The notes under the pieces were generated by a model. That model saw only the letters and a list, made by a program, of their open reading frames with translations, was not told where the DNA came from and made no database searches. Below, in pieces: positions 25,878 through 53,653 of a DNA stretch of 64,000 nt; positions within the stretch are counted from its first letter, which is position 1, and each line of letters begins with the position of its first letter. Made by a program: the position numbers and the translations under genes. This stretch comes from Acholeplasmataceae bacterium (lineage in GTDB: Bacteria; Bacillota_I; Bacilli_A; Acholeplasmatales; Acholeplasmataceae): positions 416,001 through 480,000 of the forward strand of contig OY775910.1 in NCBI GenBank assembly GCA_963675245.1, given 5' to 3'.

Positions 25878-28529
25878 ATGTTAGACAAAAAGAAGTATTT
25901 TTTAGGGTTACTTATGATATCAATCCTAGTTTTTGTGTTATCCGGATGTGAGGAATTGTTCAATTCCAATACGAATTCACCAACATCAAAAACTGGAATT
26001 ATCACTGTCAACAATGATCTTTCACCTTTGTTAATTGATGATGATATCGTGTTAGATTTTTCAGTTGGAACATTATCATCATATGATAGCAATTTGATTA
26101 CTTTTAACCTAACTAATAATGAGGCTAATGCAACTGTTGGATTTGAAACAAACGAACATAATGAGGAAGTTGCTATTATACATGCACACAACTTTGGAAC
26201 AGTTGATTTAAAAATCACTTATGAAAGTGATATAACTTATGAATCAGATAAAATCACACTTGTTTTCTCACACTATCCATTAAGAACATCAGAAGATCTT
26301 GCCGATCTTGAAAACTCAAGCGATGTTTTCGTCTTACTAGATGATATTGACATATCAGATGAGACATGGACTCCTATTACAGGCTTTTCTGGAACATTAT
26401 TTGGCAATGGTTTTACAATTTCAAATGTTTCAATCCAAAGTACTTCTGCAGATAATATTGGTTTTTTCGATATTTTGAGTGGTCATGTATATGATTTGAA
26501 ATTAAATGTTGATATCAACGTTACTGGAGGTTATCAAAATATTGGTGGCTTAGCAGGTTCTAGTATTGGTTCAATAGAAAATGTTGAGATTACTGGTCAA
26601 ATTACAGCCCAACAAGGAACAAATGTTGGAGGTGTAGTTGGATTTTCTGATTTAGCCAATTTAAATTCTAATATAAACCACGCAACAATAGTTGGTGATA
26701 ATTCTGTTGGTGGTGTTGGTGGTTTTGTTACCATTGACGAAGAAGAAACTATTGCTGGAAACCAAAACAATGGTACTATTACTGGTAACGGTGATAATAT
26801 CGGTGGTGTTATCGGTAGTTTATCTGGTATTTACAATGACTATTCCGCAAGTGAGACTTATTTAAATAACTTTATAAACACTGGCGAAGTAACAGGATTA
26901 TCTTCAAATGTAGGTGGTATAGTAGGTTTTATTACTTCAACAAACAACTATTCATTTTCTGATCCAGATGAAATTATTTTCTTTATGATGAGTAATTGTA
27001 TTAATCAGGGTATCGTCATTGGTGAAGATTATGTCGGTGGTATTGTTGGAAATGGACATGCTGTTGGTTTAATTGAATATTCAAGTAATAATGCAAATAT
27101 TACTGGTGAAGATTATGTCGGTGGTTTTCTCGGTTTTGGTAAATGGGCAGATATTAACGGTGCAGTAAATGAAGTCATTGTTACTGGGGATGCTTACGTT
27201 GGCGGTATTGCAGGATTTGGTGCAGAATTTAGCGAGTGTGAAAACAGTGGTTCTATTATCTCTAATCACACGATTTCGGTAGAAACTGAACTTGTATCTT
27301 ATGTTGGTGGTATAGCAGGGTATATGACACTCGCAAATGACTGTTTTAACAATTCAGATATCACAGTTAACACAGGTGGTGCATATGTCGGCGGTATTGC
27401 AGGTTACATTGCTTCTGCAGAAGAAGTAACCATAGCTAATAATGAAAATAATGGCGATATCTCAAGTACTGGAGAAAGTGTTGGCGGTATTTTTGGGGCA
27501 AGTGTTGGTGTTTTTCATGATTATTCTTCTACTTCAGCATATTTAAATAACAACGTAAACAATGGAGATATTTATAGTACGCAGTCAAATGTGGGTGGTA
27601 TTATTGGTTATTCATCTTCTATTAATAAATATTCATTTGCAGATGATATAGACCGTATGTTTTTAGTCATTTCAAATAGCACTAATACTGGTACAATTAC
27701 GGGTGATAATTATGTAGGTGGTATTGTGGGCAATGGACTATCAGTATCGGATATCAATTATAGTACAAATTCAGCAAACATTACCGGTGCAGATTATGTA
27801 GGTGGATATTTAGGGTATGGTAAATATGCTAATTTTAATCAATTAACAAACGATAATACAATTACAGGTAAAACATACGTAGGTGGTATTGCTGGATATG
27901 CAAATGAATTCTATGATTGTACAAATAACGGATCTATTATTTCAACTGGTGTTACAGTTGTTAATACATTGTTCGTAGTTTATGTAGGCGGCATCGCTGG
28001 ATACATGACATTAGCCACAGATTGTATTAATAATGCGGATATTGACGTGTCAAATGAAGGTGATTATGTTGGTGGAATTGCGGGTTATATGTTAATTGAT
28101 GAATTAATAAAAGTTGAGGGTAACGAAAATAATGGCGATATTACAAGTTCAGGAGATTATGTTGGTGGCATTGTTGGTTCTATTATTGGTAAATATGATG
28201 ATTATCATTCAACATCAGCAGACTTTACAGAAAATATAAATCGTGGCAATATTACGGGCTATGGATTTGTAGGGGGATTGATTGGTTATCAAGGATCAAA
28301 TAATACGTATACGTTCGCTGATGAAACTGAACAACTCTATATTAATATTTCAAATTGTGAAAATAGCGGAGATATCACTGGTATAAACTATGTCGGTGGT
28401 TTGATTGGTTATGCAACTCATGCATATAGTTCAGATAGTTTATGGAATACAAACACATCTATTTGTATTATTACAGCTGATGAAAATGGCGGTATAATTT
28501 ATGGCTTTATTAGAAATGTGAAAAGTTAG
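25878..28529 (+). CDS. Large surface lipoprotein with GLUG-type (VGGIVG) repeats
   Basis: Lipobox LSGC; WTPI..FSG.LFGNGFTISN head; many YVGGIAG repeats. Confidence 0.8.
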   Translation: MLDKKKYFLGLLMISILVFVLSGCEELFNSNTNSPTSKTGIITVNNDLSPLLIDDDIVLDFSVGTLSSYDSNLITFNLTNNEANATVGFETNEHNEEVAIIHAHNFGTVDLKITYESDITYESDKITLVFSHYPLRTSEDLADLENSSDVFVLLDDIDISDETWTPITGFSGTLFGNGFTISNVSIQSTSADNIGFFDILSGHVYDLKLNVDINVTGGYQNIGGLAGSSIGSIENVEITGQITAQQGTNVGGVVGFSDLANLNSNINHATIVGDNSVGGVGGFVTIDEEETIAGNQNNGTITGNGDNIGGVIGSLSGIYNDYSASETYLNNFINTGEVTGLSSNVGGIVGFITSTNNYSFSDPDEIIFFMMSNCINQGIVIGEDYVGGIVGNGHAVGLIEYSSNNANITGEDYVGGFLGFGKWADINGAVNEVIVTGDAYVGGIAGFGAEFSECENSGSIISNHTISVETELVSYVGGIAGYMTLANDCFNNSDITVNTGGAYVGGIAGYIASAEEVTIANNENNGDISSTGESVGGIFGASVGVFHDYSSTSAYLNNNVNNGDIYSTQSNVGGIIGYSSSINKYSFADDIDRMFLVISNSTNTGTITGDNYVGGIVGNGLSVSDINYSTNSANITGADYVGGYLGYGKYANFNQLTNDNTITGKTYVGGIAGYANEFYDCTNNGSIISTGVTVVNTLFVVYVGGIAGYMTLATDCINNADIDVSNEGDYVGGIAGYMLIDELIKVEGNENNGDITSSGDYVGGIVGSIIGKYDDYHSTSADFTENINRGNITGYGFVGGLIGYQGSNNTYTFADETEQLYINISNCENSGDITGINYVGGLIGYATHAYSSDSLWNTNTSICIITADENGGIIYGFIRNVKS

Positions 28530-28642: not shown

Positions 28643-29491
28643 TTAATATGCTACAGTTACAAGTACCCCTCTTTTCTTCTTTCGCAAGACATACCATGTA
28701 CCTACACCAAGCGCTAATGCGATATTAACAACTGACCATATCCAATACCCTGGTTGAGGAACATCTTCCATAAACAATACTGGGAAGAATGGAACTGAGA
28801 CATTGCTTATTGTATGCATGATCCATGGAATGATTAACTTCTTTCCAGATAAATTATATAGGATACCAATCACGACTGACCAACTTGTCGTGAATAACAC
28901 GAATGTGATAAACGGATAAAATGAATGTCCTTCGCCTTGGATTAACCATAGTGGTGCATGCCATACGCCCCATAATACACCGATTAATAAGCTCGCAGGT
29001 ATAATGCCTATTTTATCTTGTAGTGGAGATTGGATGAATCCTCTCCACCCAAACTCTTCTTGTCCACCACCTACAAAGAAAATCATTAAAGTATATGGAA
29101 TGAATAACACATAAGGAGATATCTCCATATCAGTGGGTATTAATGTATCAAGTAAGATATCACTGCCTAATAGGTTTGTTCCATAGTGAGCTATGATGGT
29201 TGTGATAAACCCAAACAGCACAGCAATCAGATAGAATTTCCAATGTGCCTTGAGATCAAAAGATCTTTTAAAGAACGCTTTAACAGCTAGCCATTTTCCT
29301 TGTGAGTATGTGAGGATAGTTGCTGAGACGAGTGGTCCAAACGCACCTAATATCACAACGAGACTAATGAGTGATGACAATGTATCTGTCATCAAATATA
29401 ATCCAAATGTAGGTAAAACAAATGGTAACCATAATACCCAAGCCCAAACATACGTATAAATAAAATATTTGACAATTGTTTTATTATTCAT
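28643..29491 (-). CDS. CPBP (Abi/CAAX-type) intramembrane metalloprotease, copy 1
   Basis: EEFGWRG, WGVWH, HTISN motifs. Confidence 0.9.
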   Translation of the reverse strand: MNNKTIVKYFIYTYVWAWVLWLPFVLPTFGLYLMTDTLSSLISLVVILGAFGPLVSATILTYSQGKWLAVKAFFKRSFDLKAHWKFYLIAVLFGFITTIIAHYGTNLLGSDILLDTLIPTDMEISPYVLFIPYTLMIFFVGGGQEEFGWRGFIQSPLQDKIGIIPASLLIGVLWGVWHAPLWLIQGEGHSFYPFITFVLFTTSWSVVIGILYNLSGKKLIIPWIMHTISNVSVPFFPVLFMEDVPQPGYWIWSVVNIALALGVGTWYVLRKKKRGVLVTVAY

Positions 29492-29578
29492 TTTATGACT
29501 CCTGTTCTTGTTAATTTCTAACTTAAGCATACCACCAACAGAACAGGATGTAGCACAACGGTTTGTTGCAAGATAATA

Positions 29579-29815
29579 TTAAAAAACACCCTTGATTTCA
29601 AGGATATCTTCTAATTTAACATCTAACAATTGTGATAATACAACTAGGTGTTCAATCTTAGGTAATTTAAACCCATTAACCCAGTCATATATAACCCTTG
29701 CAGTGTTAAGATTCAAATATTCAGCAATAACGTCATACGACATGCCTGATCTTTGAATAAGTGTTCGTAAATTATCGCCAGTTTTATCTCTGTCAATAAC
29801 CATTGATTGATCCAT
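29579..29815 (-). CDS. Small XRE-family HTH regulator, divergent from the large ncRNA
   Basis: AAGGAGG RBS; KTGDNLRTL...VIYDWVNGFKLPKIEHL...LEDIL. Confidence 0.85.
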   Translation of the reverse strand: MDQSMVIDRDKTGDNLRTLIQRSGMSYDVIAEYLNLNTARVIYDWVNGFKLPKIEHLVVLSQLLDVKLEDILEIKGVF

Positions 29816-29937
29816 ATTAACTACCTCCTTTGGAATTAACTCTTTAATTCACATCTATAAAATGAATATCAGGTAGTCTTTGGATCAATTTCTAAATTAT
29901 AATAAATTTCTATTTTTGTCAATAGCATTTATATTCT

Positions 29938-30008
29938 TTGAACTATCAGTACAAAAATTAGCCTTGAACTAGTAGTACATTGTATAGAACATATCATTAA
30001 ACTATAAT
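29938..30008 (+). promoter_or_regulatory. ncRNA promoter with two upstream operator-like repeats
   Basis: TTGAACTATCAGTACA (29938-29953) and TTGAACTAGTAGTACA (29964-29979), then TTGTAT-17bp-TATAAT (29980-30008). Confidence 0.7.
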
Positions 30009-30020
30009 AGCGATGTATTA

Positions 30021-30573
30021 AATGAATTCTTTGAAAATTGAATATCTCACAAGCATATGAAAAACTAGTTTAATCAACTACTATGCACATATTGTTGGGC
30101 ATGGAAGTGTGGCGATAGTCACATCCAGTAATGTTATACTACTTACAAAACATGGTAAGCAATGATATGGTGGTATGTTGAACTTATACATCATAAAGCA
30201 TCAGATCTTTTCGAGGAAGCAATAAACGCTATCGTGGATAGAAACATCAAGTTAGGAAAATGGGTTAGCATCCATAGGTCAAACCTTGAAACGCTCATAA
30301 TTCCTTGTGTCGTTGAAACACCGAAAGGTGCTATAAGAAGAGACTGGGTTGGAGTAGCACAAATTGACATTCTATTTGTTAAATAGATAATGGCTCTGAT
30401 TGTGTGAAACTTGAGGATAACCAATGCCTTTACGGTTTTTATAAAGAGACGGTTAAGATGAGGTAGCTCCTTATCTGTGCCCCGTTACTTACCGGTGGCT
30501 GAATAATGATGAAGTAGGGCATATTACGAGGAAGACTTGGTGAGATATTTAATTTTGAGAGAATTAATTCATT
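30021..30573 (+). ncRNA. Large structured non-coding RNA, probably ROOL-like
   Basis: Own promoter and terminator; 30025-30050 pairs with 30540-30565 (23 WC + 2 GU + 1 mismatch); internal hairpins including CACC-GAAA-GGTG; no credible ORF; short motifs recalled from ROOL RNAs (AAACATGGTAAGCAAT, CTGAATA..GAAGTAGG). Family identity not verified by search. Confidence 0.7.
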
Positions 30574-30579
30574 TTCACA

Positions 30580-30610
30580 AAAAAATCGTCCAGATGATGG
30601 ATGATTTTTT
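30580..30610 (+). terminator. Intrinsic terminator after the ncRNA (possibly bidirectional)
   Basis: AAAAAATCGTCCA-GATGA-TGGATGATTTTTT. Confidence 0.75.
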
Positions 30611-30661
30611 AATTTTCTAGATATTAGTTTTGCTTTTTTATTGAATAAATACATATCAGTA

Positions 30662-31504
30662 TCATGCTGCAACAAGATACCTATGATTCTTTTGATGGAT
30701 CATATACCACGACCCTAAGACAATCGCGAATGTGATATTAACAATCACCCACACCCAATAACCAGGTTGAGGGACATCTGCCATAAACAATACCGGAAAG
30801 AATGGCACCGACACATTACTAATCGTATGCATAATCCAAGGGATGATCAGTCTCTTACCTGATAGATTATATAAAATGCCAATAACGACTGACCAACTTA
30901 TCGTAAATAATAAGAAAGCAATAAACGGATAATAAGAATGTCCTTCTCCTTCTATTAACCAGAGAGGGGCATGCCAAAATCCCCATAATAACCCTATCAA
31001 TAAACTCGCTTTAATCAATCCCATTTTATCTTGTAGTGGAGACTGAATAAACCCTCTCCATCCAAATTCTTCTTGACCTCCACCCACGAAAAAGATCATT
31101 AAGGTATAGGGAATGAATAACACAAAGACAGGCACACCTAAATCCGTTGGTATTAACGTATTCGGAAGTGTATCAATATTTAATAGTCCTGTACCATAGT
31201 GAGCAATGATGGTTGTAATAAGTGCGAAAAATACGGCCAATACATAAAACTTCCAATTCGTCTTTAAACTTAAAGACCTCTTATAGAATGCTTTAACAGC
31301 TACCCATTTTCCCTGTGAGTAGGTGAGGAGGGTTGCTGCTACGAGCGGTCCAAATGCCCCCAAGATGACTGCCACACTAAGTAAAGATGACAGTGTGTCT
31401 GTCATGTCATATAATCCGAATGTCGGCAAAACAAAAGGTAACCACAATACCCAAGCCCAAACATACGTGTAGATGAAATATCTAACTATCGCTTTATTTT
31501 CCAT
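30662..31504 (-). CDS. CPBP (Abi/CAAX-type) intramembrane metalloprotease, copy 2
   Basis: Same motifs as copy 1, with long identical peptide stretches. Confidence 0.9.
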   Translation of the reverse strand: MENKAIVRYFIYTYVWAWVLWLPFVLPTFGLYDMTDTLSSLLSVAVILGAFGPLVAATLLTYSQGKWVAVKAFYKRSLSLKTNWKFYVLAVFFALITTIIAHYGTGLLNIDTLPNTLIPTDLGVPVFVLFIPYTLMIFFVGGGQEEFGWRGFIQSPLQDKMGLIKASLLIGLLWGFWHAPLWLIEGEGHSYYPFIAFLLFTISWSVVIGILYNLSGKRLIIPWIMHTISNVSVPFFPVLFMADVPQPGYWVWVIVNITFAIVLGSWYMIHQKNHRYLVAA

Positions 31505-31788: not shown

Positions 31789-34125
31789 TTAGGATATATA
31801 TCTTTTCAGTATATCAATGTCCAAATCAATCTTATATATACTTTTATCAAATACAATCTCATTTTCATTTACATCTATAACATAATCAATAATTTTATCA
31901 ATATCATCATTAAAGAATCCATATCTTAAAAGCCATATTCTAACTGGTTCATTAGTACCAAATTTGACTAGATTCGAAATTTCAAACGCTCTCTGATCAC
32001 CTGTTTTTAAATAATATGTATCAAATGTTGCATAAAATATGTCTTTCAGTCTTAGCGATATTAACTTATCCATAAAATCATATGTATCAAATATTACTGT
32101 GTCATAATCGATATCTAAAATATTAGAATCTGTAAATTTAGGATATCTCTTTAGATTAATGTTGGGAATATCGTTATAGCCCACTAAATATTTTGCTTCA
32201 ATGTTTGATAGCTTATGAATTAATTTTTTTTTGTCTTCACCATTTGCATGTATCAATTGATTTCTTATATCTTTTACTTCTTCATCAAAAAATTTCGTCG
32301 TAAAAAAATACCTTAATGCAGCTATTTGCTTAAAACTCTTGCCTAATATAGACCACAACATTATTTGAAAACCCTCATTAAGAACATCTTGTTCTCCTAA
32401 ACTTAACTCTTTTCGTCTTATATGTCGAAGATAAATACTCATAAAAGCTGATTTGATAATACCTTTTGTTTCCGTACTATATATTTTAAAAGTTTCATAA
32501 GGAATTAATTTGTTGTCAACAAATAGGTAATTTATTATTTTATTTATTTCAATATCTATTTCATTTGATGTAAGTAATTCTACTTCTTTATTAGTTAAAT
32601 TATATTTATCTGAAAAATCGTTGTTTTTTATAGCTTCTTTTAATTCAGCGACATCAATCTCGTTCTCTCCAAAATTTCTATCAATATTTGATTTTTCATC
32701 AATAAACTCATTATGATTCATTAACTTTCTAAATCCAGATTTGTTTTGATCCTTAATGAGTACAATACCAAAGTCAAAACCCTTTAGTTTTGAAGCTCTT
32801 CCTGCTCTCCCTATTAAATTCTTAACACCTAAAGTCTTACTTAATTCCAATCTTTCTACCCAAACAAGATCAAAAGGCATATTAATTCCTTGATATAGTG
32901 TAGATGTTGCAATACATACTTTTGATAATCCTAGATTTATAAATTTTTCTATTTTTTTTCTTAAATCCAAAGGCATTGATCCATGATGGATTACTATACC
33001 AAATTTCATTAAACGAAGCAAAAATGAGTCTTTATATCTTGAAACTCCTAATATATCTTTCACTTCTTCTATAAGTTTTAATCCTTCTTCAGTATTTATG
33101 ATTCTGAAATATTTCCTATATTTAAACAAATCTTGTAAGTATTTTTTATTTATAATCTTGCTTTTTGGCATATAAATTAGAATGCTTCGTCCATTAGATA
33201 GTACACGTTCAATAGGATCAAAATGTAATTCCATTTTGTGATTGCCAAGCGCTTCCTTATCTACAGCAAATTGGTAAAATTTATTATCATCATAAGAAAA
33301 ATAAATTTGACCAACATTTCTTTGTTCATAAACTTTTGATTCGTTATCAACATTGAATAAATGATTTCTTGTGATTTGCGCTTCAGGATTAGATATAAAT
33401 GGATGTGCGAATAATATTTTTGAATTTGGAAATTCTTTGTGGAATCTTCTAACTATTCCATCGAAAAGAACTCCCCTGATATTTTTCTCATCAGCTAATT
33501 GTGCTTCATCAAATAGAATTAAATCTAAATTGAATAGATTCTTCAATGAGAAAACAGACTTCGCTCTTTCTGGTGTTAATATGAATATATTTCTCTCCAC
33601 ATTATTCCTGTTGACGAAATCCACATGTTGCAATAAGTTAACTTTTTTAAAATTCAAAGTTTCCTCTAATAAAATTATATACTCATTAATTAACGCTCTC
33701 GATGGTACAATAATAACTACATCATTTAAATACTCGTTAAGTAATTCTCGAAACACGAAAGATTTTCCTACACTCGTGCCACTTGAAAAACTAAACACTT
33801 TATTTTTGTTACTTTTTTCAATTATCTCGACTTGAGTTGGTGTGAATTTTTGATTCATCTTTTTTATAATAGCACTTTTGTTTATTGAAAATATAGTGCT
33901 TTTCAATGTTGTTGGATTAGAATCTTTATAAAACAACCCCATAGCTAAATTTACTTCATCTTCATAAAATTTAAAAAAATCTTCATGGTAATATTTTATT
34001 GAGGATAATATTTCCAACACACCAGACCTTATTGGTCCGTTGTAAAATAAATCTCGAATGCATCTTTTTATGATTTCTTCTAGATTGATACCGTTGTATA
34101 TGTCATTGATTAAACTATTACTCAT
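31789..34125 (-). CDS. hamB: SF2 (Ski2-like) DEAD/DEAH helicase, Hachiman HamB-like
   Basis: GTSVGKS, IVPSRALI, TPER, DEAQ, IHHG, ATSTLYQGIN, NLIGRAGR; overlaps the hamA-like gene. Confidence 0.75.
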   Translation of the reverse strand: MSNSLINDIYNGINLEEIIKRCIRDLFYNGPIRSGVLEILSSIKYYHEDFFKFYEDEVNLAMGLFYKDSNPTTLKSTIFSINKSAIIKKMNQKFTPTQVEIIEKSNKNKVFSFSSGTSVGKSFVFRELLNEYLNDVVIIVPSRALINEYIILLEETLNFKKVNLLQHVDFVNRNNVERNIFILTPERAKSVFSLKNLFNLDLILFDEAQLADEKNIRGVLFDGIVRRFHKEFPNSKILFAHPFISNPEAQITRNHLFNVDNESKVYEQRNVGQIYFSYDDNKFYQFAVDKEALGNHKMELHFDPIERVLSNGRSILIYMPKSKIINKKYLQDLFKYRKYFRIINTEEGLKLIEEVKDILGVSRYKDSFLLRLMKFGIVIHHGSMPLDLRKKIEKFINLGLSKVCIATSTLYQGINMPFDLVWVERLELSKTLGVKNLIGRAGRASKLKGFDFGIVLIKDQNKSGFRKLMNHNEFIDEKSNIDRNFGENEIDVAELKEAIKNNDFSDKYNLTNKEVELLTSNEIDIEINKIINYLFVDNKLIPYETFKIYSTETKGIIKSAFMSIYLRHIRRKELSLGEQDVLNEGFQIMLWSILGKSFKQIAALRYFFTTKFFDEEVKDIRNQLIHANGEDKKKLIHKLSNIEAKYLVGYNDIPNINLKRYPKFTDSNILDIDYDTVIFDTYDFMDKLISLRLKDIFYATFDTYYLKTGDQRAFEISNLVKFGTNEPVRIWLLRYGFFNDDIDKIIDYVIDVNENEIVFDKSIYKIDLDIDILKRYIS

Positions 34126-34819
34126 ACAATTTCACCCCTATAAATATGGCTTCTTCGTAATTACATAATATTTTAAAATGTGGATTATCAATTATATTTT
34201 TTATTAGTTTTTCCTCATCATTTGTATGCAACGAAAATCCTGCAATATAGCCTTTATGATCATTCATAAATTCATCAATATTTATCTTTGTAATAAATTT
34301 GTCAATATTTGCCAGTTCCTCTAAATCTTTATTGTCGTTTATAAACCTCTCAATTTGCTCCAATGCTGCCCCATATCCATTGTTATTTGATCTGTATTTT
34401 GATTCGCCAAACATCAATATAGTATTGTTTATGGTGATAAAATCAAATCCTGGGTTTCCCTTTACCTGCTCTTTTATTAATTCTAATAGTGGTAGTGCTT
34501 TATGATGTAATTCGTGTTGAACAGAATAAATACTTTGCGTGCTGACGATATACTCACCAGCTTCTTCTGCTAATGAATTTTTTTCAACTGCTTTTATCTC
34601 TTCACTTATTTTTTCAGCAGTTTTTTTACATCTGCTTGCAAATGATGCTTTCAACCAATCAATTTCTAAACTATTAATCCAAGTTAAATCATTTAAATAC
34701 AATAAAAGTTTGTACACTTCAAACTCTAAGTCGTCTACTAAGACTTCAATATATCTCAATGTAACGTTTTCTTTTATTCCATATTTACTGTTTTGAATAA
34801 TAATATTGCTTTTTATCAA
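34118..34819 (-). CDS. hamA: Hachiman HamA-like (DUF1837-type) PD-(D/E)xK nuclease
   Basis: AGEY...KGNPGFDF...FGESKY; directly upstream of helicase; TTGATA-17-TATAAT promoter at 34883-34911. Confidence 0.7.
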   Translation of the reverse strand: MIKSNIIIQNSKYGIKENVTLRYIEVLVDDLEFEVYKLLLYLNDLTWINSLEIDWLKASFASRCKKTAEKISEEIKAVEKNSLAEEAGEYIVSTQSIYSVQHELHHKALPLLELIKEQVKGNPGFDFITINNTILMFGESKYRSNNNGYGAALEQIERFINDNKDLEELANIDKFITKINIDEFMNDHKGYIAGFSLHTNDEEKLIKNIIDNPHFKILCNYEEAIFIGVKLYE

Positions 34820-34913: not shown

Positions 34914-36146
34914 TCATACAAAATTAGTTTTAAAAACTGAAAGTAAATATGTAATCAACATCAAGCATCCAACTAATATAAACATAAACTGATAAGAAAT
35001 ATTATCAGCAATCAATCCCAACAATGGTGCAAATATAATAATAAATATAGACGTCAATTGTGAATCTATTGATAAGACACTTGCTCTTCTATCTGGATCC
35101 GCATGGTCCCCAATCACTTCTACCATTAATGGTTTCCTAATATTTAAGAATACATACATGAATATAAAACCAATGAATGTTATGATTAACTGATTAATAA
35201 ATATGCCTATTACAACCATGGTTATTCCACTTAACGCCCACATCAGGGCATTAATCGTTTCATGATTGCTTAACCTAAGTAGTTTATATGCATTTCTGGA
35301 TACAATCGCACTAATCAAGAATATCACAGCGTACATAATCGCAGAATACACTTCAACATGTTCATCTGCACTTAACTGATTAAATAGTAATAATGTCATA
35401 GGCATAGCGACTAATATTAATTGAATAAAGTCTTTTAATATTTTAAACATCGCTTGATAACTAGATGATCTAAACAATATGCTTCTCATCTCTTTATCTT
35501 TCCATACATAAGCTAATGTATTCTTATTCTCATTTATAAATGATTTCCATTTAAATGAACTTTCTTTTCGTTCATTTAAGAATTTAGGATAAGTCATAAT
35601 TAAAATGATATCCAAAAGATATGGAATAATCGCTAAGAAGAATAAGAATCTTAATTCTGGAATAGCAAGTACAAGATAAATCGTAAATAAACTAGATACC
35701 ATAGAACCTATCATAGAGTAAGATCTTGTTTTACCATAGATCTTACTCTTTTCATCTTTTAGATTCTTCTCATCCATATATTGCATAATCATGGCTTTAT
35801 GCGTACCACTTCTAAATGCTTCTCCTAATCCAAATAAGATCATGGCAATGATAAATACCCAGAATACTGTGCCAATGGCAAATATCACAAAACTTGCAAT
35901 ATAAAAGACAAAACACAAAATGAGTTCTGTCTTCTTACCATACCTGTCAGCAAACACACCTGATGGTATTTCAAATATGTAGATGATTGCTTCTCTGATG
36001 GAATATAATAAACCAATCTGAAAGACACTTAATCCAAATGAATAAAGATAGATTAAGAGTACTGGATCAAAGAAACGTAAGTTCTTAAAGAATCCATAGA
36101 AACCAAATTTAGTTATTTGTGTCGTTGCTTTTTTATCTTCATTCAT
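34914..36146 (-). CDS. MFS transporter
   Basis: FEIPSGVFADRYGKK motif A; RASVLS; about 12 TMs. Confidence 0.85.
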   Translation of the reverse strand: MNEDKKATTQITKFGFYGFFKNLRFFDPVLLIYLYSFGLSVFQIGLLYSIREAIIYIFEIPSGVFADRYGKKTELILCFVFYIASFVIFAIGTVFWVFIIAMILFGLGEAFRSGTHKAMIMQYMDEKNLKDEKSKIYGKTRSYSMIGSMVSSLFTIYLVLAIPELRFLFFLAIIPYLLDIILIMTYPKFLNERKESSFKWKSFINENKNTLAYVWKDKEMRSILFRSSSYQAMFKILKDFIQLILVAMPMTLLLFNQLSADEHVEVYSAIMYAVIFLISAIVSRNAYKLLRLSNHETINALMWALSGITMVVIGIFINQLIITFIGFIFMYVFLNIRKPLMVEVIGDHADPDRRASVLSIDSQLTSIFIIIFAPLLGLIADNISYQFMFILVGCLMLITYLLSVFKTNFV

Positions 36147-36180: not shown

Positions 36181-38238
36181 TTAATTGATTAACTTACTCT
36201 CAAGCATAAATAAGTTATTTAATAAAATATAAACGACAAAGTATATTTTGTTAATCAATCTATCCAACTCAGATAAAACAGGTATTGTTTGTTGATGAAT
36301 ATATTTGTTTCTTTCAATTCGAAATTCATTGATTTCTTTAACTGTATTTTCGACTGTTATATATCTATTTCCCATGCTAACAAACAACTCTTTTAAAATC
36401 ATAGTATAGTCATACATTGTGAGATTAATCACCCACTCTTCTAATTCTAATGAAACTTCTTTTTTTATGTTATTTCTAACATATTTTATAATAAATGCTT
36501 CATTTTTATCTAAATTATTTCGAATATAATTAATCATATTAACCATTAGTTTTTCAATACCTTTTAACTGTGGAAACAAAATAAAAGAAAAATCCATTAA
36601 ATCTTTAACAACATTACTATCAACTTGTTTCTTAAAATATCCACAAAGAAACTCGCTTTCTATTAAATGTAGATACCAATCTTTACTTATTTTATTAAGG
36701 CATTCTATTGAATTAACAATATCATTTTCCGACATAAAAGGTAAATTCCAAAATTTGTGATATTCAGATTTAGATATATTGAGTAGTTTTTCTAAAAACA
36801 CTTTTGATAAGTCATCAAAAGCAAAATCTGAATAACTATACTGATTGGTAGTATCTAATTCGATTTGTAATAGTTGTTCGTTTATTTTATTAACAATGAA
36901 TTTTTCTCGCAAATATTGTTGGTACAATTCATCATCAAACAATTCATAAGAATATATGCAATCATTGAACAATAAATCACGTGTGCAACTTTCTAAAGTC
37001 ATTAACCTCATTGTTAGATAATTTTCTAAATCTTGTATAACATCTAAATCATTATGTTTATGTGCATAGTCTAGAAGGTATAACAGACTATCCTGAAAAA
37101 ATTCATGAGCCTTTATTAATTCATTAATAAAATTGTTGCTGTCTATTTTAATTGTACCCTCAATATCATTGTAAACAAAAGATAGATATTTAGAAAGTAA
37201 ATTTTCTCCATTTGTGATTTTTCTATATATATCTTTAGATAAATTTAGGTTTTCAAATAATTCTTCTACGCTGCTAAAAACTTCTTGCGTATAATCTTCA
37301 TTAAATGTATCAATTAAATCTGAAATATTCGAAATAAATCCTTTTTCAATTTTTTCATATTGTTCAACAAAAAATCTTTTCCAATCAAATTGTTCTAAAT
37401 ATTCTTTTCTATTTTTTAAAAGTTTTATCATTAAGCCTCTAGACAATTTATTATCTTCAATATATTTATCTAAATCTATTTTCATCATTGAGAATAGATT
37501 ATATTTAGTTATGTCAATTAATCTTTGGAATTGATAACCCAATTGCCATTTTTTTCTATACTCATCAAAATATTCTAAAATAGAAATGCTTATGTTTAAT
37601 TTATCGGTATTAAAATCTGAAGAATCATAACAATCGTTAATAATTTCCAATATTTCATATAATATACCTGAATGTCTTTTTATTTCGTAATTATAATTTT
37701 CAAACAAGCGTTTTACTACATTGTTATAATCAAAAACATAGAAAAAGATCTCTACTAGATACTTTTTGTATTTGTAGGCATTTTCTTCAACAAATTTGTC
37801 TATTATTGAAAATAAACTACTAAAAAGAAAGCTAGACTCAGCATTAATGTTTCTTGAGGCATCTATTTGTTCTCCATGAACCATTAAATCCACAAGCTTA
37901 ATAACTTGTTGTTTAAACGTTTTATATTTAGAAAAATTAAATTCAATTCCATAAATATTGAAAATGAAATGATAAACAAAATCATGATATTGAAATGACT
38001 TTTCTTTATAAATTAACAATTCATTATATAAAAAATCACTGTTTTTTTTTATTAGAATTTCGTCAAGATCTTTGATAGAATTTTGCAACATATAAAACGT
38101 GGGAAATAAATCAGAACTTTTGTAATACAACTCTATCATTAATAACCCAAGTTCCTCATTGGATATTCTGCGTTTAGTATTTTCCAGAATTCTTTTATAG
38201 TGTTCATCGTAATATTTCCATATAATCGTTTCGTTCAT
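36181..38238 (-). CDS. Large helical protein with C-terminal HEPN-like (RnlA-type) domain
   Basis: DFSFILFPQLKGIEKL and RNKYIH (RxxxxH) near the C-terminus; GGAGG RBS; last gene of defence operon. Confidence 0.55.
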   Translation of the reverse strand: MNETIIWKYYDEHYKRILENTKRRISNEELGLLMIELYYKSSDLFPTFYMLQNSIKDLDEILIKKNSDFLYNELLIYKEKSFQYHDFVYHFIFNIYGIEFNFSKYKTFKQQVIKLVDLMVHGEQIDASRNINAESSFLFSSLFSIIDKFVEENAYKYKKYLVEIFFYVFDYNNVVKRLFENYNYEIKRHSGILYEILEIINDCYDSSDFNTDKLNISISILEYFDEYRKKWQLGYQFQRLIDITKYNLFSMMKIDLDKYIEDNKLSRGLMIKLLKNRKEYLEQFDWKRFFVEQYEKIEKGFISNISDLIDTFNEDYTQEVFSSVEELFENLNLSKDIYRKITNGENLLSKYLSFVYNDIEGTIKIDSNNFINELIKAHEFFQDSLLYLLDYAHKHNDLDVIQDLENYLTMRLMTLESCTRDLLFNDCIYSYELFDDELYQQYLREKFIVNKINEQLLQIELDTTNQYSYSDFAFDDLSKVFLEKLLNISKSEYHKFWNLPFMSENDIVNSIECLNKISKDWYLHLIESEFLCGYFKKQVDSNVVKDLMDFSFILFPQLKGIEKLMVNMINYIRNNLDKNEAFIIKYVRNNIKKEVSLELEEWVINLTMYDYTMILKELFVSMGNRYITVENTVKEINEFRIERNKYIHQQTIPVLSELDRLINKIYFVVYILLNNLFMLESKLIN

Positions 38239-38276
38239 AATCAACCTCCATACCGTTGACTAACAATTTAAAATTT

Positions 38277-39194
38277 TCATTTATTTGTATTTATAATATC
38301 TAATATTTTACATTCCTTAGCAAGATCACATGCACTTTCATAAGAAATATTTGTTACTCCTTGTGGAATAGTTGTACTGATTTGTGGTAAATCCTTACTA
38401 TTCATTAATTTTACACTTCTAATGCTGTTTTTTAATGAAAAAACAATACCTTGATTTAGAGTATCAATTCCACAATAATTCATCATTTTGTGTAGAGAAA
38501 ACTTCGTTTCAAAATTATTGGTTTTGTTTAACACTTCCACAAATAATTCAAATAAACTAGTACCTTTTTCAGTTGTATATAAGATAACGGAAGATACAAA
38601 TATGTCATATAATAAATTATGAAGTTGTTCATGAGTAAATCTATGAATTCTATTTGCTTTAGTGGTTGTTTTTACCTCAATTTTTTTGGTCTCTGTAATT
38701 TCGATGTCGTGTTTAGAATATGCGTTTTTATGATAGTCATTGAGTATGTTTTTATACCCTTTATTATAAAAATATAAAAGTGTTATTAGTTCTCCTGCTG
38801 TACCTATCTGTATATTGTTAAGATCACCACTTGGTTTTTGAAATAAATTTTGTATTGAAAACATTAGTTCTGAAAAAGTGTCTTCATCAATTGGGTTTTC
38901 AATTTTTTTAAAAACATATTCATAAATAATATCAAAATTATGATCCATATAATCTGTACTATCTTTACAACTAATAAGATGAAAATAGTACTTTTTGTTA
39001 TCATAGTTTAAAACTACATTTTTTTTAATAATAAGATGTTTTGTGTCATAACTAAATTCTATAATCTTTAGGGATGAATTCTTGAAAAGTAAGGTTCTTT
39101 GACCAGATTCGTTAATGCATGGAATAACATTTGCGTTTTGAAGTTCACCTTTTTCAATTTCAGTAATGTATTTATAAATCATAAATAAATTCAT
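38277..39194 (-). CDS. PD-(D/E)xK motif protein (DUF4420, MzaD-like)
   Basis: IGTAGELI...KHDI...IEVKTT; overlaps the Z1 gene. Confidence 0.8.
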   Translation of the reverse strand: MNLFMIYKYITEIEKGELQNANVIPCINESGQRTLLFKNSSLKIIEFSYDTKHLIIKKNVVLNYDNKKYYFHLISCKDSTDYMDHNFDIIYEYVFKKIENPIDEDTFSELMFSIQNLFQKPSGDLNNIQIGTAGELITLLYFYNKGYKNILNDYHKNAYSKHDIEITETKKIEVKTTTKANRIHRFTHEQLHNLLYDIFVSSVILYTTEKGTSLFELFVEVLNKTNNFETKFSLHKMMNYCGIDTLNQGIVFSLKNSIRSVKLMNSKDLPQISTTIPQGVTNISYESACDLAKECKILDIINTNK

Positions 39195-41325
39195 CTCCTG
39201 TTACATATCTAATACTATATTTAGTTAGAGGATTGTTAAACGCCAATAGTGGTATAATTTTTTTTTCCGTTTTGTCTGTGTAAACTAAATGTATCTGTAG
39301 TTGTAATTTATTTTCTAAACCTGTCAAATTTTTATCTCCTGGATACTCTGTTCCAATATCATATCCTTGTGGAAGTTCTTTAATGGAATTTCCCTGAAGA
39401 GATAAGGAACGATACTGACCCGTTTTATATCTCATTATAACTATCTTTATAAGATTTTCTATCATGCCATCTTTTACTTGTTCTAAAATTTTTTTAAATG
39501 GTATAGGTCCTATTACTGAATTTCTTTGAAATTTAAACTTAGAAATGAAATTTTTATATAATTCAGTATATTCACTTGTAATAATCAAATGGTTTTGGGA
39601 ATCATTTAATGCAAATTTTATAATTTCACTTTTGTAGTTTTTTTCTTCAATTAACGATTTTATTATCTCATTGTTATTATATATATCTTTTGCACTAAAT
39701 AGTATAGATTTATCATAAGTATAGCCAGATTTAATCCTTTGCAATGTAATAGTTTTAGAAACAGTTCTTCTGGTTATGATAAGTTTATCATGATCTAATG
39801 AAAAAATTCTTTTGTATTCTTTTAAATTGATTTTAGTTTCTAGAAACTCTGAAACAGACACCCACAAATCACGTTCATTGTCTGCTATTGCAATGAATTT
39901 TTCTTTCAAACTTTTTGTCATATATACTCTGCATACATCAAAGTAGTTGCGTTTATAACCAAACCATCTAGCTCTTTGATACAAAGTATCAATTGCGGAA
40001 ACTTTTGAATCCCTATACATATATGTAACTATTAGGTTAGGAATTGTTACCCCCCTTGACAGCATATTACCACCTACATAAATTTTAAATAGAATATTTT
40101 CATCTTTTTTGCTTTCTTCAATATCTGTCATTCCTTTCGCAGAAGTATTATATTCATAAACCTTATAGAAGTCTAGAGAATTAATTAAGATTCTTATAAT
40201 TGACTCAAAAGAATATTTTACATTAAATTCATTTTCATATATCTTTTGAAAATCTTCAATTATCATAGCATGAAACGGATGATTTGAATGAAATATTATT
40301 TCTTTTAAATCTTCTAAATCATCAGATATTTTTTCAACTATGTTTTTTTGAACTTTTTTTAAGTGTGAAGGGTGAATAAGCATCGAAAATGGTTTGTTAG
40401 GATTTTTTATTTTTTCTATAATGGTACCTAACATAAAATATTTTAATGCGGATTTATAAGAATCAGGTATGGTGAATTTAAAATCATCTGTATCATCAAT
40501 TGTAATTACATGGGGGTTTGACATCAAATCATGAAAAGCGTCTCCACCAGTATAGGATTCTCCTGGTTCAACCAAGACAGCATAATCCGGGCTTAATTCA
40601 TCAAGTGTTGATAAGAGTAAATTAGCCTGTGGTGTAGCAGTGATAAACATCATTGTAATATTTTTAAAACTGAACAATATATCACTTATAACGTCGTGAG
40701 TGATTCCTGCTCTATTGTTTCTACTTTTCATTTTTGGAGCTCCAGGTGTATGTTCGTCACTTTCATCATCAACTATCAAAATCGGAACATCCTTCATTGT
40801 TTCAGCAAAATCAAGAGCTAAATAAAGATTAGTTTGTTTGGAACTAACGTTTTTTAAAACAATTACAATAACTTTGAAACCATCATTAATTAATTTTAAT
40901 ATTTTATCGCATTTTGAATCTTTCAAGACTAAAATTTTCACTTGATAATTGTTATCAAACTCCTGAGATAATCTTGTCAAGTTTTGATCTAATAAATTAT
41001 TTTTTGTCCCTCCAAATAAAAAACAAACGTTATAACCATTATCAAATGCTAAGGCTATTGATGAGATGAAAAATGCAGTTTTCCCGCTTTGTACTTTACC
41101 CAAACATAAAATTTTAGATCTGCTCGTTTCTTTTTTAGGGTCTGCAAAAAAGGAAACTGCTTTTTTTGAATTAGTTTGTATATGTTTTGCTACTTTTTCT
41201 CCTCTGCTATTAATCAGATTTTCTAACATTAGATGATGATGATATCCATCTAAAACAACTGTATTTAGTCTATCATCATTGTCTTCTCTTAAGATATAAT
41301 CAAATTCTACATGTTCTGTCTTCAT
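39172..41325 (-). CDS. Z1-domain protein with N-terminal helicase-like ATPase (MzaC-like)
   Basis: GKVQSGKT, DDESD, TATPQAN, SMLIH, GGNMLSRGVT, DTLYQRARWFGY. Confidence 0.88.
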   Translation of the reverse strand: MKTEHVEFDYILREDNDDRLNTVVLDGYHHHLMLENLINSRGEKVAKHIQTNSKKAVSFFADPKKETSRSKILCLGKVQSGKTAFFISSIALAFDNGYNVCFLFGGTKNNLLDQNLTRLSQEFDNNYQVKILVLKDSKCDKILKLINDGFKVIVIVLKNVSSKQTNLYLALDFAETMKDVPILIVDDESDEHTPGAPKMKSRNNRAGITHDVISDILFSFKNITMMFITATPQANLLLSTLDELSPDYAVLVEPGESYTGGDAFHDLMSNPHVITIDDTDDFKFTIPDSYKSALKYFMLGTIIEKIKNPNKPFSMLIHPSHLKKVQKNIVEKISDDLEDLKEIIFHSNHPFHAMIIEDFQKIYENEFNVKYSFESIIRILINSLDFYKVYEYNTSAKGMTDIEESKKDENILFKIYVGGNMLSRGVTIPNLIVTYMYRDSKVSAIDTLYQRARWFGYKRNYFDVCRVYMTKSLKEKFIAIADNERDLWVSVSEFLETKINLKEYKRIFSLDHDKLIITRRTVSKTITLQRIKSGYTYDKSILFSAKDIYNNNEIIKSLIEEKNYKSEIIKFALNDSQNHLIITSEYTELYKNFISKFKFQRNSVIGPIPFKKILEQVKDGMIENLIKIVIMRYKTGQYRSLSLQGNSIKELPQGYDIGTEYPGDKNLTGLENKLQLQIHLVYTDKTEKKIIPLLAFNNPLTKYSIRYVTGDEFIYDL

Positions 41326-41331
41326 TGATAA

Positions 41332-42813
41332 TCACTCCAGATTTTTAATAATTTCATTTATTTTTTTTACAAATTTATATGAGTCTTTAAATCCAGCTGT
41401 TATACTTGACAATTCTGAGATAGCAATAATTATTGCAAAAGTTTGCATTAGTTCAGATTCACCTTGTTTAAGTTTTTTAAATAGTTTAAGATTATTGTTA
41501 ATTCTAACGGAATATTGATTTTTTTCTATGGAGATAATTGATACATTTATCCATTCTTCATCTCTTTCGTTTTCATCACAATAACTAAGTAAAAATTGAT
41601 AATCTTGACCCTCATAACTAATTTCAAGTTTATGCATATCTTCTTCTAAAACTGAATTTACTGGAAGATCACCATCGTTTTGTTTATCGACTAAAACCGT
41701 CTTTTTGATCTGTTTTAGACTTTCAAATCTTTTATAATCTTTTTTAACCATGATTTGTTGTTTTTCTGCTGATAATCTGTTTTTTTTAGATTTTCTAAGC
41801 GAGCTAGCAATCTTTATAAATTTACTAATAATACTGTTATTTTTCAATTCAATAATAAACTTGTCTTGTAATCCATTGTTCCATGTAAAAGATCCCTTAT
41901 TAAAATCTACTGGCCATTCATTTAAATTAATTTCACCTACGATTCTCTGATATGGAAATGAATTTGCTTTACCAAGCAAGAGTTCAGGTCTATAATTGCT
42001 TACAATAATTCTGTCCTGCTTGAGTAGAGAAAATCCAGCCTTACCATTTTTTGATGTATCTGCCGTGTGTAAAATACCTATCCATCCGAAATATTCATAT
42101 CTTTTTCCACCAAATGTTAATTCACCTTCGAAATCTTGGAGAAATTCCGATCCATCTTCATTGATCCATAGTTGAGGTGGTTCATACTTAACCGATTGAT
42201 TTGGATAAAAATTAATTTCTAGTTCTTCGTTACCTAAATAAATATGATAAATTTTTGACAAGGCTTCCATTAATAATATTTTTTCTTTATTTGTGATTTT
42301 TACAATTAGATTTCTTATTGTGATTTTTGAATAGTGTTCATTTGGTAATACAGTGTCATCAATTTGTGCGATTACTATTTTACTGTTCTTTTTCAATAAT
42401 TCCTCATTTATAGTAGCTGTGTATTTTTCTGAATTTCCAAGCATTGTTGTCTCGATTGTATATTCATATCCTAAAGATATCGCTGCATATTTTAAGCCCA
42501 TACCAAATTCACCCAAACTGTTTTCTGGATATTCTTTATTTTTCTCATTGAGAGTTAATGCTCGTTTAAATGCTTCTAAATTCATGCCGTATGCATTATC
42601 AGAAATAGAAATCTCATCTTTGCTAATTGTTATCAATACAACACATTTATCGATACCAAGTTCTTTTAATTTTATATTATTTTCCTTCGTACGAAAACTT
42701 TGTAAAGAATTATCAATAAATTCTTTGAAAATGTTTTCTAACTTCAATTGATTTCTTTGAAATTGTAGTTGAATACTTGTTCCAACTTCAATATTTATTT
42801 TTTCTTGTCTCAT
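41332..42813 (-). CDS. MORC/GHKL-family ATPase (MzaB-like)
   Basis: EFIDNS, ISDNAYGM, GEFGMGLK Bergerat-fold motifs. Confidence 0.85.
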   Translation of the reverse strand: MRQEKINIEVGTSIQLQFQRNQLKLENIFKEFIDNSLQSFRTKENNIKLKELGIDKCVVLITISKDEISISDNAYGMNLEAFKRALTLNEKNKEYPENSLGEFGMGLKYAAISLGYEYTIETTMLGNSEKYTATINEELLKKNSKIVIAQIDDTVLPNEHYSKITIRNLIVKITNKEKILLMEALSKIYHIYLGNEELEINFYPNQSVKYEPPQLWINEDGSEFLQDFEGELTFGGKRYEYFGWIGILHTADTSKNGKAGFSLLKQDRIIVSNYRPELLLGKANSFPYQRIVGEINLNEWPVDFNKGSFTWNNGLQDKFIIELKNNSIISKFIKIASSLRKSKKNRLSAEKQQIMVKKDYKRFESLKQIKKTVLVDKQNDGDLPVNSVLEEDMHKLEISYEGQDYQFLLSYCDENERDEEWINVSIISIEKNQYSVRINNNLKLFKKLKQGESELMQTFAIIIAISELSSITAGFKDSYKFVKKINEIIKNLE

Positions 42814-42815
42814 AT

Positions 42816-44021: not shown

Positions 44022-44023
44022 TA

Positions 44024-44521
44024 TTAAGCACCTAATGCACTTTCATTAAATTTCATGTAGTCTTTCAAAATTATATTAAAATTAAACTTATCTGAAAGCC
44101 AAATTTTTTGCTTAAAATCAGTTGTTATAGTATATCCTTTATTGAACGTTTGAAATATATTATTTACATGAACATAACAAGATCTATTTTTCTTGTGATT
44201 ACCAAAATTATAAATGTTCCAAAATATAAAAATATCTTTACTATAAAGAGAGTCTACACCAATAATCATGCTTGTGTTTGAGTGTCCCGACGCAATAACA
44301 CTATCTATATCAAACCCTTTGATTTGTACTCTTCTTATGTCCGGCTTATTAGACCATCCACTACCACTAACAGTTCTTATAAAAGCATAAATAGTATAAT
44401 GGTTTATTTTGTCGATTTCAATTTTGTAAAATCCTTCATTTGTTCTATTGAAATTAATAATGCTGAAACCCGAACATAATATAGCTTCTTTAATTTTATC
44501 AATATTGTTTTGCTTCTTCAT
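44024..44521 (-). CDS. Methylase-associated X1 (MTaX1)-like protein
   Basis: IRTVSGSGW..PDIRRVQI...MIIGVD...IFIFWN...RSCYV pattern; directly upstream of the methylase. Confidence 0.5.
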   Translation of the reverse strand: MKKQNNIDKIKEAILCSGFSIINFNRTNEGFYKIEIDKINHYTIYAFIRTVSGSGWSNKPDIRRVQIKGFDIDSVIASGHSNTSMIIGVDSLYSKDIFIFWNIYNFGNHKKNRSCYVHVNNIFQTFNKGYTITTDFKQKIWLSDKFNFNIILKDYMKFNESALGA

Positions 44522-46612: not shown

Positions 46613-46622
46613 ATTAGCCTCC

Positions 46623-48506: not shown

Positions 48507-48831
48507 TGTGCTACCCCTTTTATAGAACAAATAACGACAAATTGTCGCTATGAATCCCCCAACATGAATAAAGCCTAGAAATTCTATAGCAATATCCCGA
48601 TTTATGTCTGCTTTAATATATATTTTACTCTATTTTGATCAATAATCAAAGTTTATTTAGATATAGTCAATAAATCTTAAGTTTTTTTTGAAAAATCACA
48701 AATCAGAAATAATCTTTAAGTAATTTGTTTCCATTTTGAATTGGTACATATATCTTTATATTATACATGTATATTTTTATCTTTTTTATCTGTTCAGTAC
48801 TATAATGAAAGTGAACAAAGGAGATGATTAA

Positions 48832-51386: not shown

Positions 51387-51396
51387 GTTAGCCTCC

Positions 51397-53652: not shown

Positions 53653-53653
53653 A

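Follow-up and report, generated by a model that had tools for sequence, protein, structure and literature searches.

The ROOL RNA gene and its identity

The stretch of DNA analysed here, referred to below as the window, comprises 64,000 nucleotides (nt) from an Acholeplasmataceae bacterium (GCA_963675245.1, contig OY775910.1, positions 416,001 to 480,000 of the forward strand) and carries on its plus strand a gene for an RNA of the ROOL family. The locus is made up of the RNA gene itself at 30029..30558 (approximately 30021-30569 when the extended closing helix is counted), a putative promoter in front of it, an intrinsic terminator behind it and a divergently oriented gene for a small helix-turn-helix (HTH) protein. 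An earlier note, prepared from the letters of this stretch, had proposed a ROOL-like RNA at this position, and the Infernal search against Rfam that it named bears the proposal out. Indeed, the ROOL model (RF03087) matches 30029-30558 on the plus strand over 530 nt, with 194.3 bits against a gathering cut-off of 99.1 and an E-value of 3.2e-42, and the match is not truncated, with model positions 1-574 of 574 covered. In a scan of the window with 4227 Rfam families, ROOL is the sole family above its gathering score, and the models of GOLLD, OLE and the group I and group II introns stay below threshold. The same ROOL model finds a single copy in the 1.63-Mb, single-contig genome and none in 14 control genomes, and BLAST places the 530 nt at one site of the genome. 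With high confidence, a ROOL RNA gene that stands on its own occupies 30029-30558 of the plus strand. Its product belongs to a known family of bacterial and phage RNAs that are large, ornate and non-coding, and steps of expression, cage assembly and regulation are proposed for it below. ROOL is already a known class with solved cages, and the window copy is another member of that family.

Short sequence words point in the same direction. The core-word pattern of ROOL occurs once in the window and in none of 100 shuffles, and the words that align with 19 other ROOLs comprise GTGAAA-TTG-4 nt-TAA-CAAT, AGTAGC, GTGGCTGAATA and CAATA-ACGC. The columns that are invariant across the 20 aligned ROOLs include AGTAGC, GTGAAA-TTG and TAA-CAAT, all of which are found in the window copy; the 19 comparison ROOLs were gathered via the core word, whose invariance among them thus holds by construction. 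Beyond these words, the relationship to other members at the sequence level is distant, the best nhmmer score against sampled phage ROOLs being 37 bits. In addition, the phage and plasmid collections gave no blastn match to the ROOL region, and a subtype-specific pattern gave no match in metagenome contigs. The general core pattern hit 120 stretches in genome contigs, mostly by chance and in unrelated phyla, and 2 of the 18 stretches scanned with Rfam were ROOLs (L124 and L204).

Fold and covariation

The two ends of the RNA are joined by a closing helix (P1), in which the 5' strand (30025..30050, plus strand) pairs with the 3' strand (30540..30565, plus strand). This 26-bp helix, described in the earlier note, is reproduced with 23 Watson-Crick pairs, 2 G-U pairs and 1 mismatch; it extends the 16 pairs of the model to 26, and a repeat search lengthens its arms to 30 nt at 87% complementarity. 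The three internal hairpins that had been pointed out lie where they had been placed, at 30102-30127, 30319-30330 (CACC-GAAA-GGTG) and 30456-30476, as confirmed by a script check. When compared with shuffled sequences, the plus strand folds with z = -4.42, none of 100 shuffles folding as well, and the minus strand with z = -2.33. The stronger score on the plus strand supports both a fold beyond chance and the assignment of the gene to that strand. Projection of the structure line of the model, which holds nested pairs only, through the Infernal alignment gives 159 pairs, of which 117 are standard, 21 are non-standard and 21 have a deletion on at least one side. Of the non-standard ones, 10 fall in one long-range helix of low posterior probability, which re-registers in RNAduplex as 22 pairs between 30171-30199 and 30498-30526 (-17.4 kcal/mol), bringing the number of standard pairs to 134.

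The covariation that the earlier note expected among homologues is also found. ROOLs were collected from IMG/VR by the core word, and the 49 loci with a second ROOL word and enough upstream DNA were grouped into 19 clusters at 80% identity; one representative per cluster (19 in all) was then aligned together with the window copy by MAFFT, blind to structure. On this alignment the window structure, which derives from one of the aligned sequences, is paired in 56.0% of cells, compared with 47.5 +/- 0.7 after shuffling. For covariation the score is 0.285, compared with 0.154 in the shuffled alignments (none of 500 reaching the observed value) and with at most 0.162 when the partners are slid by 1-3 columns. 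Both-sided change is seen in 103 of the 134 pairs, a number reached by 9 of 500 shuffles. The best-kept helices are 30213-30218/30301-30306 and 30357-30362/30400-30405, paired in 90% and 92% of cells, respectively, and the helix 30457-30463/30469-30475 (87%) and the GAAA hairpin at 30319-30330 (78%) are also well kept.

Putative transcription signals and the boxA-like start

A putative sigma-70-type promoter precedes the gene on the plus strand (29980..30008), with TTGTAT at 29980-29985, a spacer of 17 nt and TATAAT at 30003-30008. The -10 element is perfect and represents the only strong element, as the -35 agrees with TTGACA at 3 of 6 positions and is thus weak; it is because of this partial agreement that a scan for consensus promoters omits the site. 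At the other end, an intrinsic terminator, likewise anticipated by the earlier note, is found on the plus strand at 30580..30610 and consists of a 13-pair stem, a loop of 5 nt and a T tail (1 found where 0.5 would be expected). Given the A-run before the stem and the T-run after it, the terminator could also stop the convergent protease gene that ends at 30662.

The 5' end of the RNA carries a boxA-like sequence, TTCTTTGAAAA, at 30027-30037. Its word TCTTTGAAAA (30028..30037, plus strand) is located at the extreme 5' end, within the 5' strand of P1, and recurs in both ribosomal RNA (rrn) operons of the genome, some 100 nt ahead of the 16S gene and once more within the 16S-23S spacer. In both operons the leader reads GGTCTTTGAAAACT and the spacer GATCTTTGAAAAGT, the ROOL 5' end being ATTCTTTGAAAATT, and the leader and spacer words can be read as boxA from their position. 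In rrn operons, the leaders combine boxA-dependent antitermination by Nus factors with a long processing stem formed by the 5' and 3' ends. The start of the ROOL RNA resembles such leaders in that a word with the same core is part of the 5' strand of a long helix, the 3' strand of which is the last to be synthesised. Being placed within the 5' strand of P1, TCTTTGAAAA would remain single-stranded until the 3' strand of that helix has been transcribed, and would thus be free at the time when an antitermination complex would need it. Among 45 unique viral ROOL loci, 14 have CTTT[AG]A[AC]AA in the 5'-end bin, and none has it in any other bin or on the reverse strand; counted by lineage, the boxA-like word stands at the 5' end of 5 of 19 clusters. 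It is in this limited distribution, and in its frequency in the genome, that the ROOL start differs from rrn leaders, and a role of Nus factors at this site would be by analogy. A literature search found no paper joining ROOL with boxA. A boxA-like start suggests a route by which a long untranslated RNA may get past premature termination, and may help to explain an abundance like that of rRNA.

The divergent HTH gene and a candidate operator

Upstream of the ROOL gene and divergent from it, with an intergenic distance of 213 nt, lies a minus-strand gene (29579..29815) for an XRE-type HTH protein of 78 amino acids (aa), recognised by Pfam HTH_3 and HTH_26. This protein is likely the regulator of the ROOL locus. 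A comparable neighbour is LSL_1884, an HTH gene reported just downstream of the ROOL of Ligilactobacillus (L.) salivarius, for which an effect on the expression or stability of the long non-coding RNA has been suggested (Cousin 2017, PMC5643018). When 72,556 plasmids were searched by tblastn, 34 records carried a homologue of the window HTH at E <= 1e-3, namely 33 L. salivarius megaplasmids and the Ruminococcus albus plasmid pRUMAL01, and a limit of E <= 0.05 added three Bacillus plasmids. In pMP118, the sole L. salivarius record inspected, the HTH match is at 2980-3252 of the locus, 78 nt after the ROOL at 2360-2902, and corresponds to LSL_1884 itself, which shares 37% identity with the window protein over 90% of the query (E 1e-8). 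In R. albus pRUMAL01, two HTH homologues are located 25-26 nt before tRNAs, within a cluster of 12 tRNAs.

A connection with tRNAs is also present in viruses. Four phage records carry an HTH homologue, and in two of them (L247 and L250) tRNA arrays begin 42 and 80 nt downstream; none of the four carries a ROOL. With an alignment of four members of the HTH family, 28 viral loci were collected (L332-L359), and in 13 of these same-strand tRNAs begin 18-125 nt downstream. No ROOL was found in the 16 viral HTH loci scanned, which comprise the other 15 and one more. As an observation in its own right, the viral contig L335 has an HTH gene (1431-1637) followed about 460 nt later by a HEARO RNA (RF02033, 132.6 bits; 2099-2300), with no tRNAs. 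The consensus of this small XRE-type family is ...TGxNIKxL...GFNTPQAIYKW..G...PTIDNLV..., PHROGs assigns the protein to broad regulator families only, and an HTH family heading tRNA arrays was not found described in the ROOL papers cited here. The idea that an HTH homologue is a general neighbour of ROOL was dropped, none of 50 motif-defined viral ROOL loci having one within 3 kb. All in all, the HTH belongs to a small family of non-coding-RNA islands that adjoins ROOL in two distant lineages, and is no universal partner of ROOL.

Two 16-nt direct repeats, TTGAACTATCAGTACA and TTGAACTAGTAGTACA, occupy 29938..29979; they are 26 nt apart and 88% identical and abut the -35 element. Each of them (TTGAACTA..AGTACA) is an imperfect palindrome, and together they represent a candidate operator to which the HTH protein might bind.

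Genomic neighbourhood

The ROOL gene lies apart from the elements that commonly accompany the family. Indeed, there is no tRNA in the window, the nearest one in the genome being 133 kb away, and a Pfam scan of the 59 open reading frames (ORFs) of the window returned no phage structural, terminase or integrase family, in agreement with the earlier note, which had placed the RNA beside neither tRNAs nor evident phage genes. Viral ROOLs differ in this respect, with a tRNA within 3 kb in 43 of 50 motif-defined loci. The usual context of ROOL (phage, prophage or tRNA island), which is frequent rather than defining, is thus absent around the window copy; ROOLs are also reported outside prophages (Weinberg 2017, PMC5737381).

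On the minus strand, the order of genes is a 233-aa protein, a HamB-type helicase, CPBP paralogue 2, the HTH gene and CPBP paralogue 1, the ROOL gene standing on the opposite strand between CPBP paralogue 2 and the HTH gene. The two CPBP genes, which encode Rce1-like membrane proteases, bracket the HTH-ROOL unit: paralogue 1 (28643..29530, minus strand, PF02517) follows the HTH gene in the same orientation at a distance of 48 nt, and paralogue 2 (30662..31504, minus strand, also recognised by Pfam) is convergent with ROOL. The two are 78% identical, with 78% nucleotide identity over 868 nt, their homology extends for about 40-80 nt upstream of both start codons, and a search of the 9 other species in the genus found neither. 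A possible CPBP remnant beneath ROOL, suggested by three short colinear repeats, was put down to chance, as tblastn gave nothing below E 0.04.

Further along, a Hachiman-type pair is encoded at 31789-34819 on the minus strand. The 778-aa DEAD-box helicase of this pair has PADLOC HamB as its best match (E 2.4e-49), and its gene ends 1.2 kb from ROOL, which is the distance to a defence island that the earlier note had given. The 233-aa protein encoded upstream of HamB, with an overlap of 8 nt, matches no Pfam or PADLOC family, and its identity as HamA is unsupported; the HamA position of the pair is thus occupied by an unrecognised protein. A conserved MFS transporter gene (34914-36146) stands between this pair and the defence island proper. 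Beyond 32 kb, the window enters a 16-kb island with a G+C content of 24-29%. The probable defence genes at 36181-48530, all on the minus strand, encode two products without a known family (687 and 305 aa), then a Z1/helicase protein of 717 aa, a HATPase_c_3 protein of 493 aa, a Dcm C-5 methylase, MTaX1, an AIPR protein of 696 aa and a Schlafen-group-3-type helicase of 635 aa.

Other features of the window are independent of these. At 6200-7150 (minus strand), a 316-aa protein combines MqsA-antitoxin-like, HTH_3 and SocA/Panacea domains, and may be the antitoxin paired with a 111-aa ORF of no known family at 7195-7530. An 883-aa secreted-looking protein is encoded on the plus strand at 25878-28529; it contains many degenerate Y/NVGG-IxG repeats, has no Pfam match and is the product of the only large plus-strand gene in the neighbourhood. 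At 49389-60135 (minus strand), where the G+C content rises to 39-42%, lies a cluster for a membrane-bound Mrp/Mbh-like system related to complex I, comprising the 49-kDa, 30-kDa and 20-kDa subunits, NADHdh, two antiporter-like subunits, MnhB/E/G and a Fer4/pyridine-nucleotide oxidoreductase.

Relatives and a decayed sister copy

Among the 10 genomes of the genus that were searched with the Rfam model, the 9 other species have no ROOL; at the level of the order, 307 genomes were searched by BLAST, which is blind to diverged ROOLs. A sister species (G007) shares the flanking genes in the same order. Its locus (L120, G007:C1:1513292-1516423) has a 94-nt remnant of the HTH gene (1090-1183) beside the MFS gene, with no matching minus-strand ORF of at least 50 aa, and about 320 nt beyond it a remnant of the ROOL 3' part of approximately 200 nt (about 1440-1690), 69% identical to the window copy over 133 nt. 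The latter retains GGTGGCT-AATAAT and a terminator-like end, and the counterpart of hairpin 30457-30475 still pairs via changed bases, with a different loop, although the remnant has no Rfam match even at E <= 0.1. This decayed copy indicates that the locus was present in the ancestor of at least these two species and is able to decay. With the gene missing or decayed in sister species, ROOL appears accessory and is unlikely to serve a core function of the cell.

Closer relatives are found in metagenomes. Contigs of three runs contain near-identical and approximately 82-96% identical relatives. In contigs of two of the metagenome runs, the ROOL 5' part (29973-30306) is 95.8% identical, with 14 differences in 334 nt; in the same relatives, identity is 89.7% for the ROOL 3' part, 89.2% for a piece covering the HTH gene and the start of CPBP paralogue 1, and 81.6-85.7% for the CPBP pieces. 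No other piece of the locus is thus as well kept as the ROOL 5' part, a sign of purifying selection acting on the RNA. Two metagenome contigs join 29132 to 31195, which is accounted for by a lone CPBP gene that aligns in part to one paralogue and in part to the other; nothing was drawn from this joint.

Comparison with known ROOLs and other large RNAs

The mean length reported for the ROOL family is 581 nt, and three pseudoknots are described for it (Weinberg 2017, PMC5737381). The ROOL called env-120 was resolved by cryo-electron microscopy as an octamer of 659-nt chains that forms an RNA-only cage (Kretsch 2025, PMC12286853), and homo-oligomeric cages made of RNA only, either hexamers or octamers, are reported for the env-120, E. 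faecalis and L. salivarius ROOLs (PMC12286853, PMC12990946, PMC12515178). As regards function, the ideas put forward in these reports include the encapsulation of RNAs, of ribosome parts or of other cargo (Kretsch 2025, PMC12286853; PMC12990946), and for the L. salivarius ROOL, the only one with a measured abundance, data on abundance, stability and non-essentiality are given (Cousin 2017, PMC5643018). The window copy shares with the Rfam and env-120 ROOLs the full-length fit to the model, the closing helix, the multi-stem junctions, the GAAA-capped hairpin, the variable linker hairpin and the core words, and like some of the ROOLs described it lies in a region unlike a prophage. On the other hand, it is shorter than both the family mean and env-120, lacks the hairpin at model positions 109-134 and has a shortened 3' domain.

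The closest parallel in setting is the ROOL of L. salivarius UCC118 pMP118 (LSL_1885 region). In both cases the RNA gene is in a non-phage context, with no nearby tRNAs and with a small XRE-type HTH gene adjoining, and the two HTH proteins are homologous. The two loci differ in that the HTH gene of pMP118 lies 78 nt downstream on the same strand, whereas that of the window is upstream and divergent, and the RNAs are too diverged for nhmmer to connect them. They also differ in the hairpin that has been lost: the L. salivarius ROOL is without model hairpin 220-232, which the window copy keeps at 30229-30241 while losing a different one.

In a review, the contacts that link the chains of the E. 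faecalis octamer are listed, and an 'ultrashort P10' is named as the reason why the L. salivarius ROOL forms a hexamer (PMC12990946). To map the helix names of that review, the helices of the model were numbered in order of appearance. By this numbering of our own, model hairpin 220-232 would correspond to the ultrashort P10, all helices listed in inter-chain contacts would be kept in the window copy, and the missing hairpin would be peripheral and intramolecular. Moreover, the loop of hairpin 30457-30475 is TAGCT and contains the self-complementary AGCT, which fits the symmetric kissing loop of 4 bp described in the review, if the helix names are matched correctly.

GOLLD provides a further comparison, being a large RNA of phages and Lactobacillales for which a 14-mer RNA-only cage is reported (Kretsch 2025, PMC12286853). 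ROOL is alike in being a large non-coding RNA family of mobile elements that forms an RNA-only cage, and is unlike GOLLD in that sequence and fold are unrelated; the window has no GOLLD match in Rfam. In the literature from 2024 on, no paper combining ROOL, GOLLD, phage and defense was found.

Alternative explanations and contrary observations

Different explanations of the locus have to be weighed against a ROOL gene. It is highly improbable that the region codes for small proteins and that its RNA-like features are incidental. Three ORFs of 74-78 aa do overlap it (74 aa at 30162-30386 on the plus strand, 77 and 78 aa on the minus strand), and the ROOL region of L. salivarius is reported to have once been annotated as the hypothetical protein LSL_1885 (Cousin 2017, PMC5643018). 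However, none of the three, including the 74-aa ORF singled out in the earlier note, has a family above cut-off in Pfam, even at E <= 1, and the sequence is accounted for as RNA by its match to the covariance model, by folding specific to one strand and by compensatory change. A non-autonomous element resembling a miniature inverted-repeat transposable element, whose terminal inverted repeats would mimic the closing helix, is the least probable of the explanations considered here. Inverted repeats of 26-30 nt at both ends and a variable, low-G+C accessory region would suit such an element, but with up to 3 mismatches the arm is found only at the element's own two ends in 1.63 Mb (a control pattern giving 0), the 530 nt occur once in the genome and the interior is a full ROOL; the terminal repeat is therefore not the end of an element dispersed over the genome, which the earlier note had named as an outcome that would refute its proposal. 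It is hardly more plausible that the RNA belongs to another large class, such as GOLLD, OLE or the group I or II introns, or to a new ROOL-like class. Nothing beyond size and an ornate fold speaks for it, whereas only ROOL was matched among the Rfam families and the core words align with those of 19 ROOLs; the new RNA class that the earlier note had offered as an alternative is ruled out by the match to the ROOL model.

The only rival with weight is that of a relic, in which a phage or plasmid that has since disappeared left a ROOL-derived copy behind in a variable part of the chromosome, where it still matches the model and is no longer made or assembled. Such a relic does exist in G007, where some 200 nt of the ROOL 3' part lie next to a degraded HTH gene; the window copy has a shortened 3' domain and is without a hairpin present in each of the 19 ROOLs aligned with it, and ROOL is absent from the 9 other species of the genus. 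Decay is nevertheless hard to reconcile with a full-length match at nearly twice the gathering score and 134 standard pairs, with a perfect -10 element and a terminator in place, or with a ROOL 5' part at 95.8% identity in metagenome relatives that keep the neighbouring genes at 81.6-89.2%, which suggests purifying selection. A relic is thus unlikely, though far less so than the other rivals.

Several observations nonetheless weigh against a functional, regulated ROOL gene. As regards structure, the proportion of paired cells on the MAFFT alignment is just 40-50% for many helices, P1 among them, and below 50% for the end helices; this low pairing is attributed to misaligned ends, and the alignment is no proof of those helices. 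In addition, at 530 nt the window RNA is short, it alone among the 20 aligned ROOLs is without the hairpin at model positions 109-134, and its 3' domain is shortened; with this hairpin missing and the 3' domain short, assembly could differ or fail. As regards expression, the TTGTAT-17-TATAAT sequence proposed as a promoter in the earlier note is present, but the consensus scan does not list it, and the region has no excess of promoter-like sites over chance (4, compared with 6.3 in shuffles); we infer promoter function, the ends of the RNA and its abundance from the sequence. The boxA-like motif of that note is likewise in place and shared with the rrn leader and spacer, but the 10-mer TCTTTGAAAA is not rare, with 17 occurrences in the genome where 13.3 are expected from base composition, so that one such site alone proves nothing. 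Furthermore, the boxA-like word is missing from 14 of the 19 clusters, and likewise from L124 and from the L. salivarius ROOL. As regards the HTH gene, its absence from the surroundings of the 50 viral ROOLs has been mentioned, and it may instead serve the CPBP gene that follows 48 nt after it. Lastly, the ROOL locus is dispensable, given the decayed copy in G007.

Proposed mechanism and significance

If the ROOL gene is functional, its transcription would start about 7 nt past the -10 element, near 30015, and would stop at the terminator (30580-30610), giving a primary transcript of approximately 600 nt with no translated ORF. The word TCTTTGAAAA in its first bases could load the NusB/NusE antitermination machinery of the rRNA type and so keep the polymerase on a long untranslated RNA. 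By analogy with the structures from other species, six or eight copies of the RNA might then come together, with no protein involved, as a closed cage in which kissing loops and minor-groove contacts hold the chains in place, and the divergent 78-aa HTH protein would control the locus, probably via the two 16-nt repeats that abut the -35 element. As to what such a cage may do, our best guess is an accessory role in the conflict between mobile elements and their host, where it could store or shield RNA or other cargo. For the window ROOL, the most likely role seems to be one in phage-host conflict, given the ancestry of ROOL in mobile elements and a position bordering on a defence island; the location beside a Hachiman-type helicase and a methylase-linked island, together with the decayed sister copy, fits a conflict-related role without proving one.

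A more specific scenario, which is rather doubtful, would have ROOL and the HTH gene form a regulated two-gene module that stems from the tRNA islands of phages and megaplasmids and has settled, free of tRNAs, at the edge of a chromosomal defence island. The HTH protein would shut the promoter via the TTGAACTA..AGTACA repeats; after its release, the boxA-like word would let the RNA be synthesised in the manner of rRNA, and the cage would act in phage-host conflict.

Few natural RNAs are known to form a closed cage without protein, and ROOL is among them. One more copy of it adds little alone, and it is the absence of phage and tRNA surroundings that exposes the leads offered by the HTH gene, the boxA-like start and the deleted hairpin. 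In particular, the window ROOL represents a natural hairpin-deletion variant that is informative on what a cage requires, and the link to the HTH family points to a protein that may regulate ROOL as well as accessory tRNA islands. Were the two-gene module to hold, the cage might trap or shield RNAs or ribosome parts, and the locus would provide the first regulator for the ROOL family as well as its first testable link to defence.

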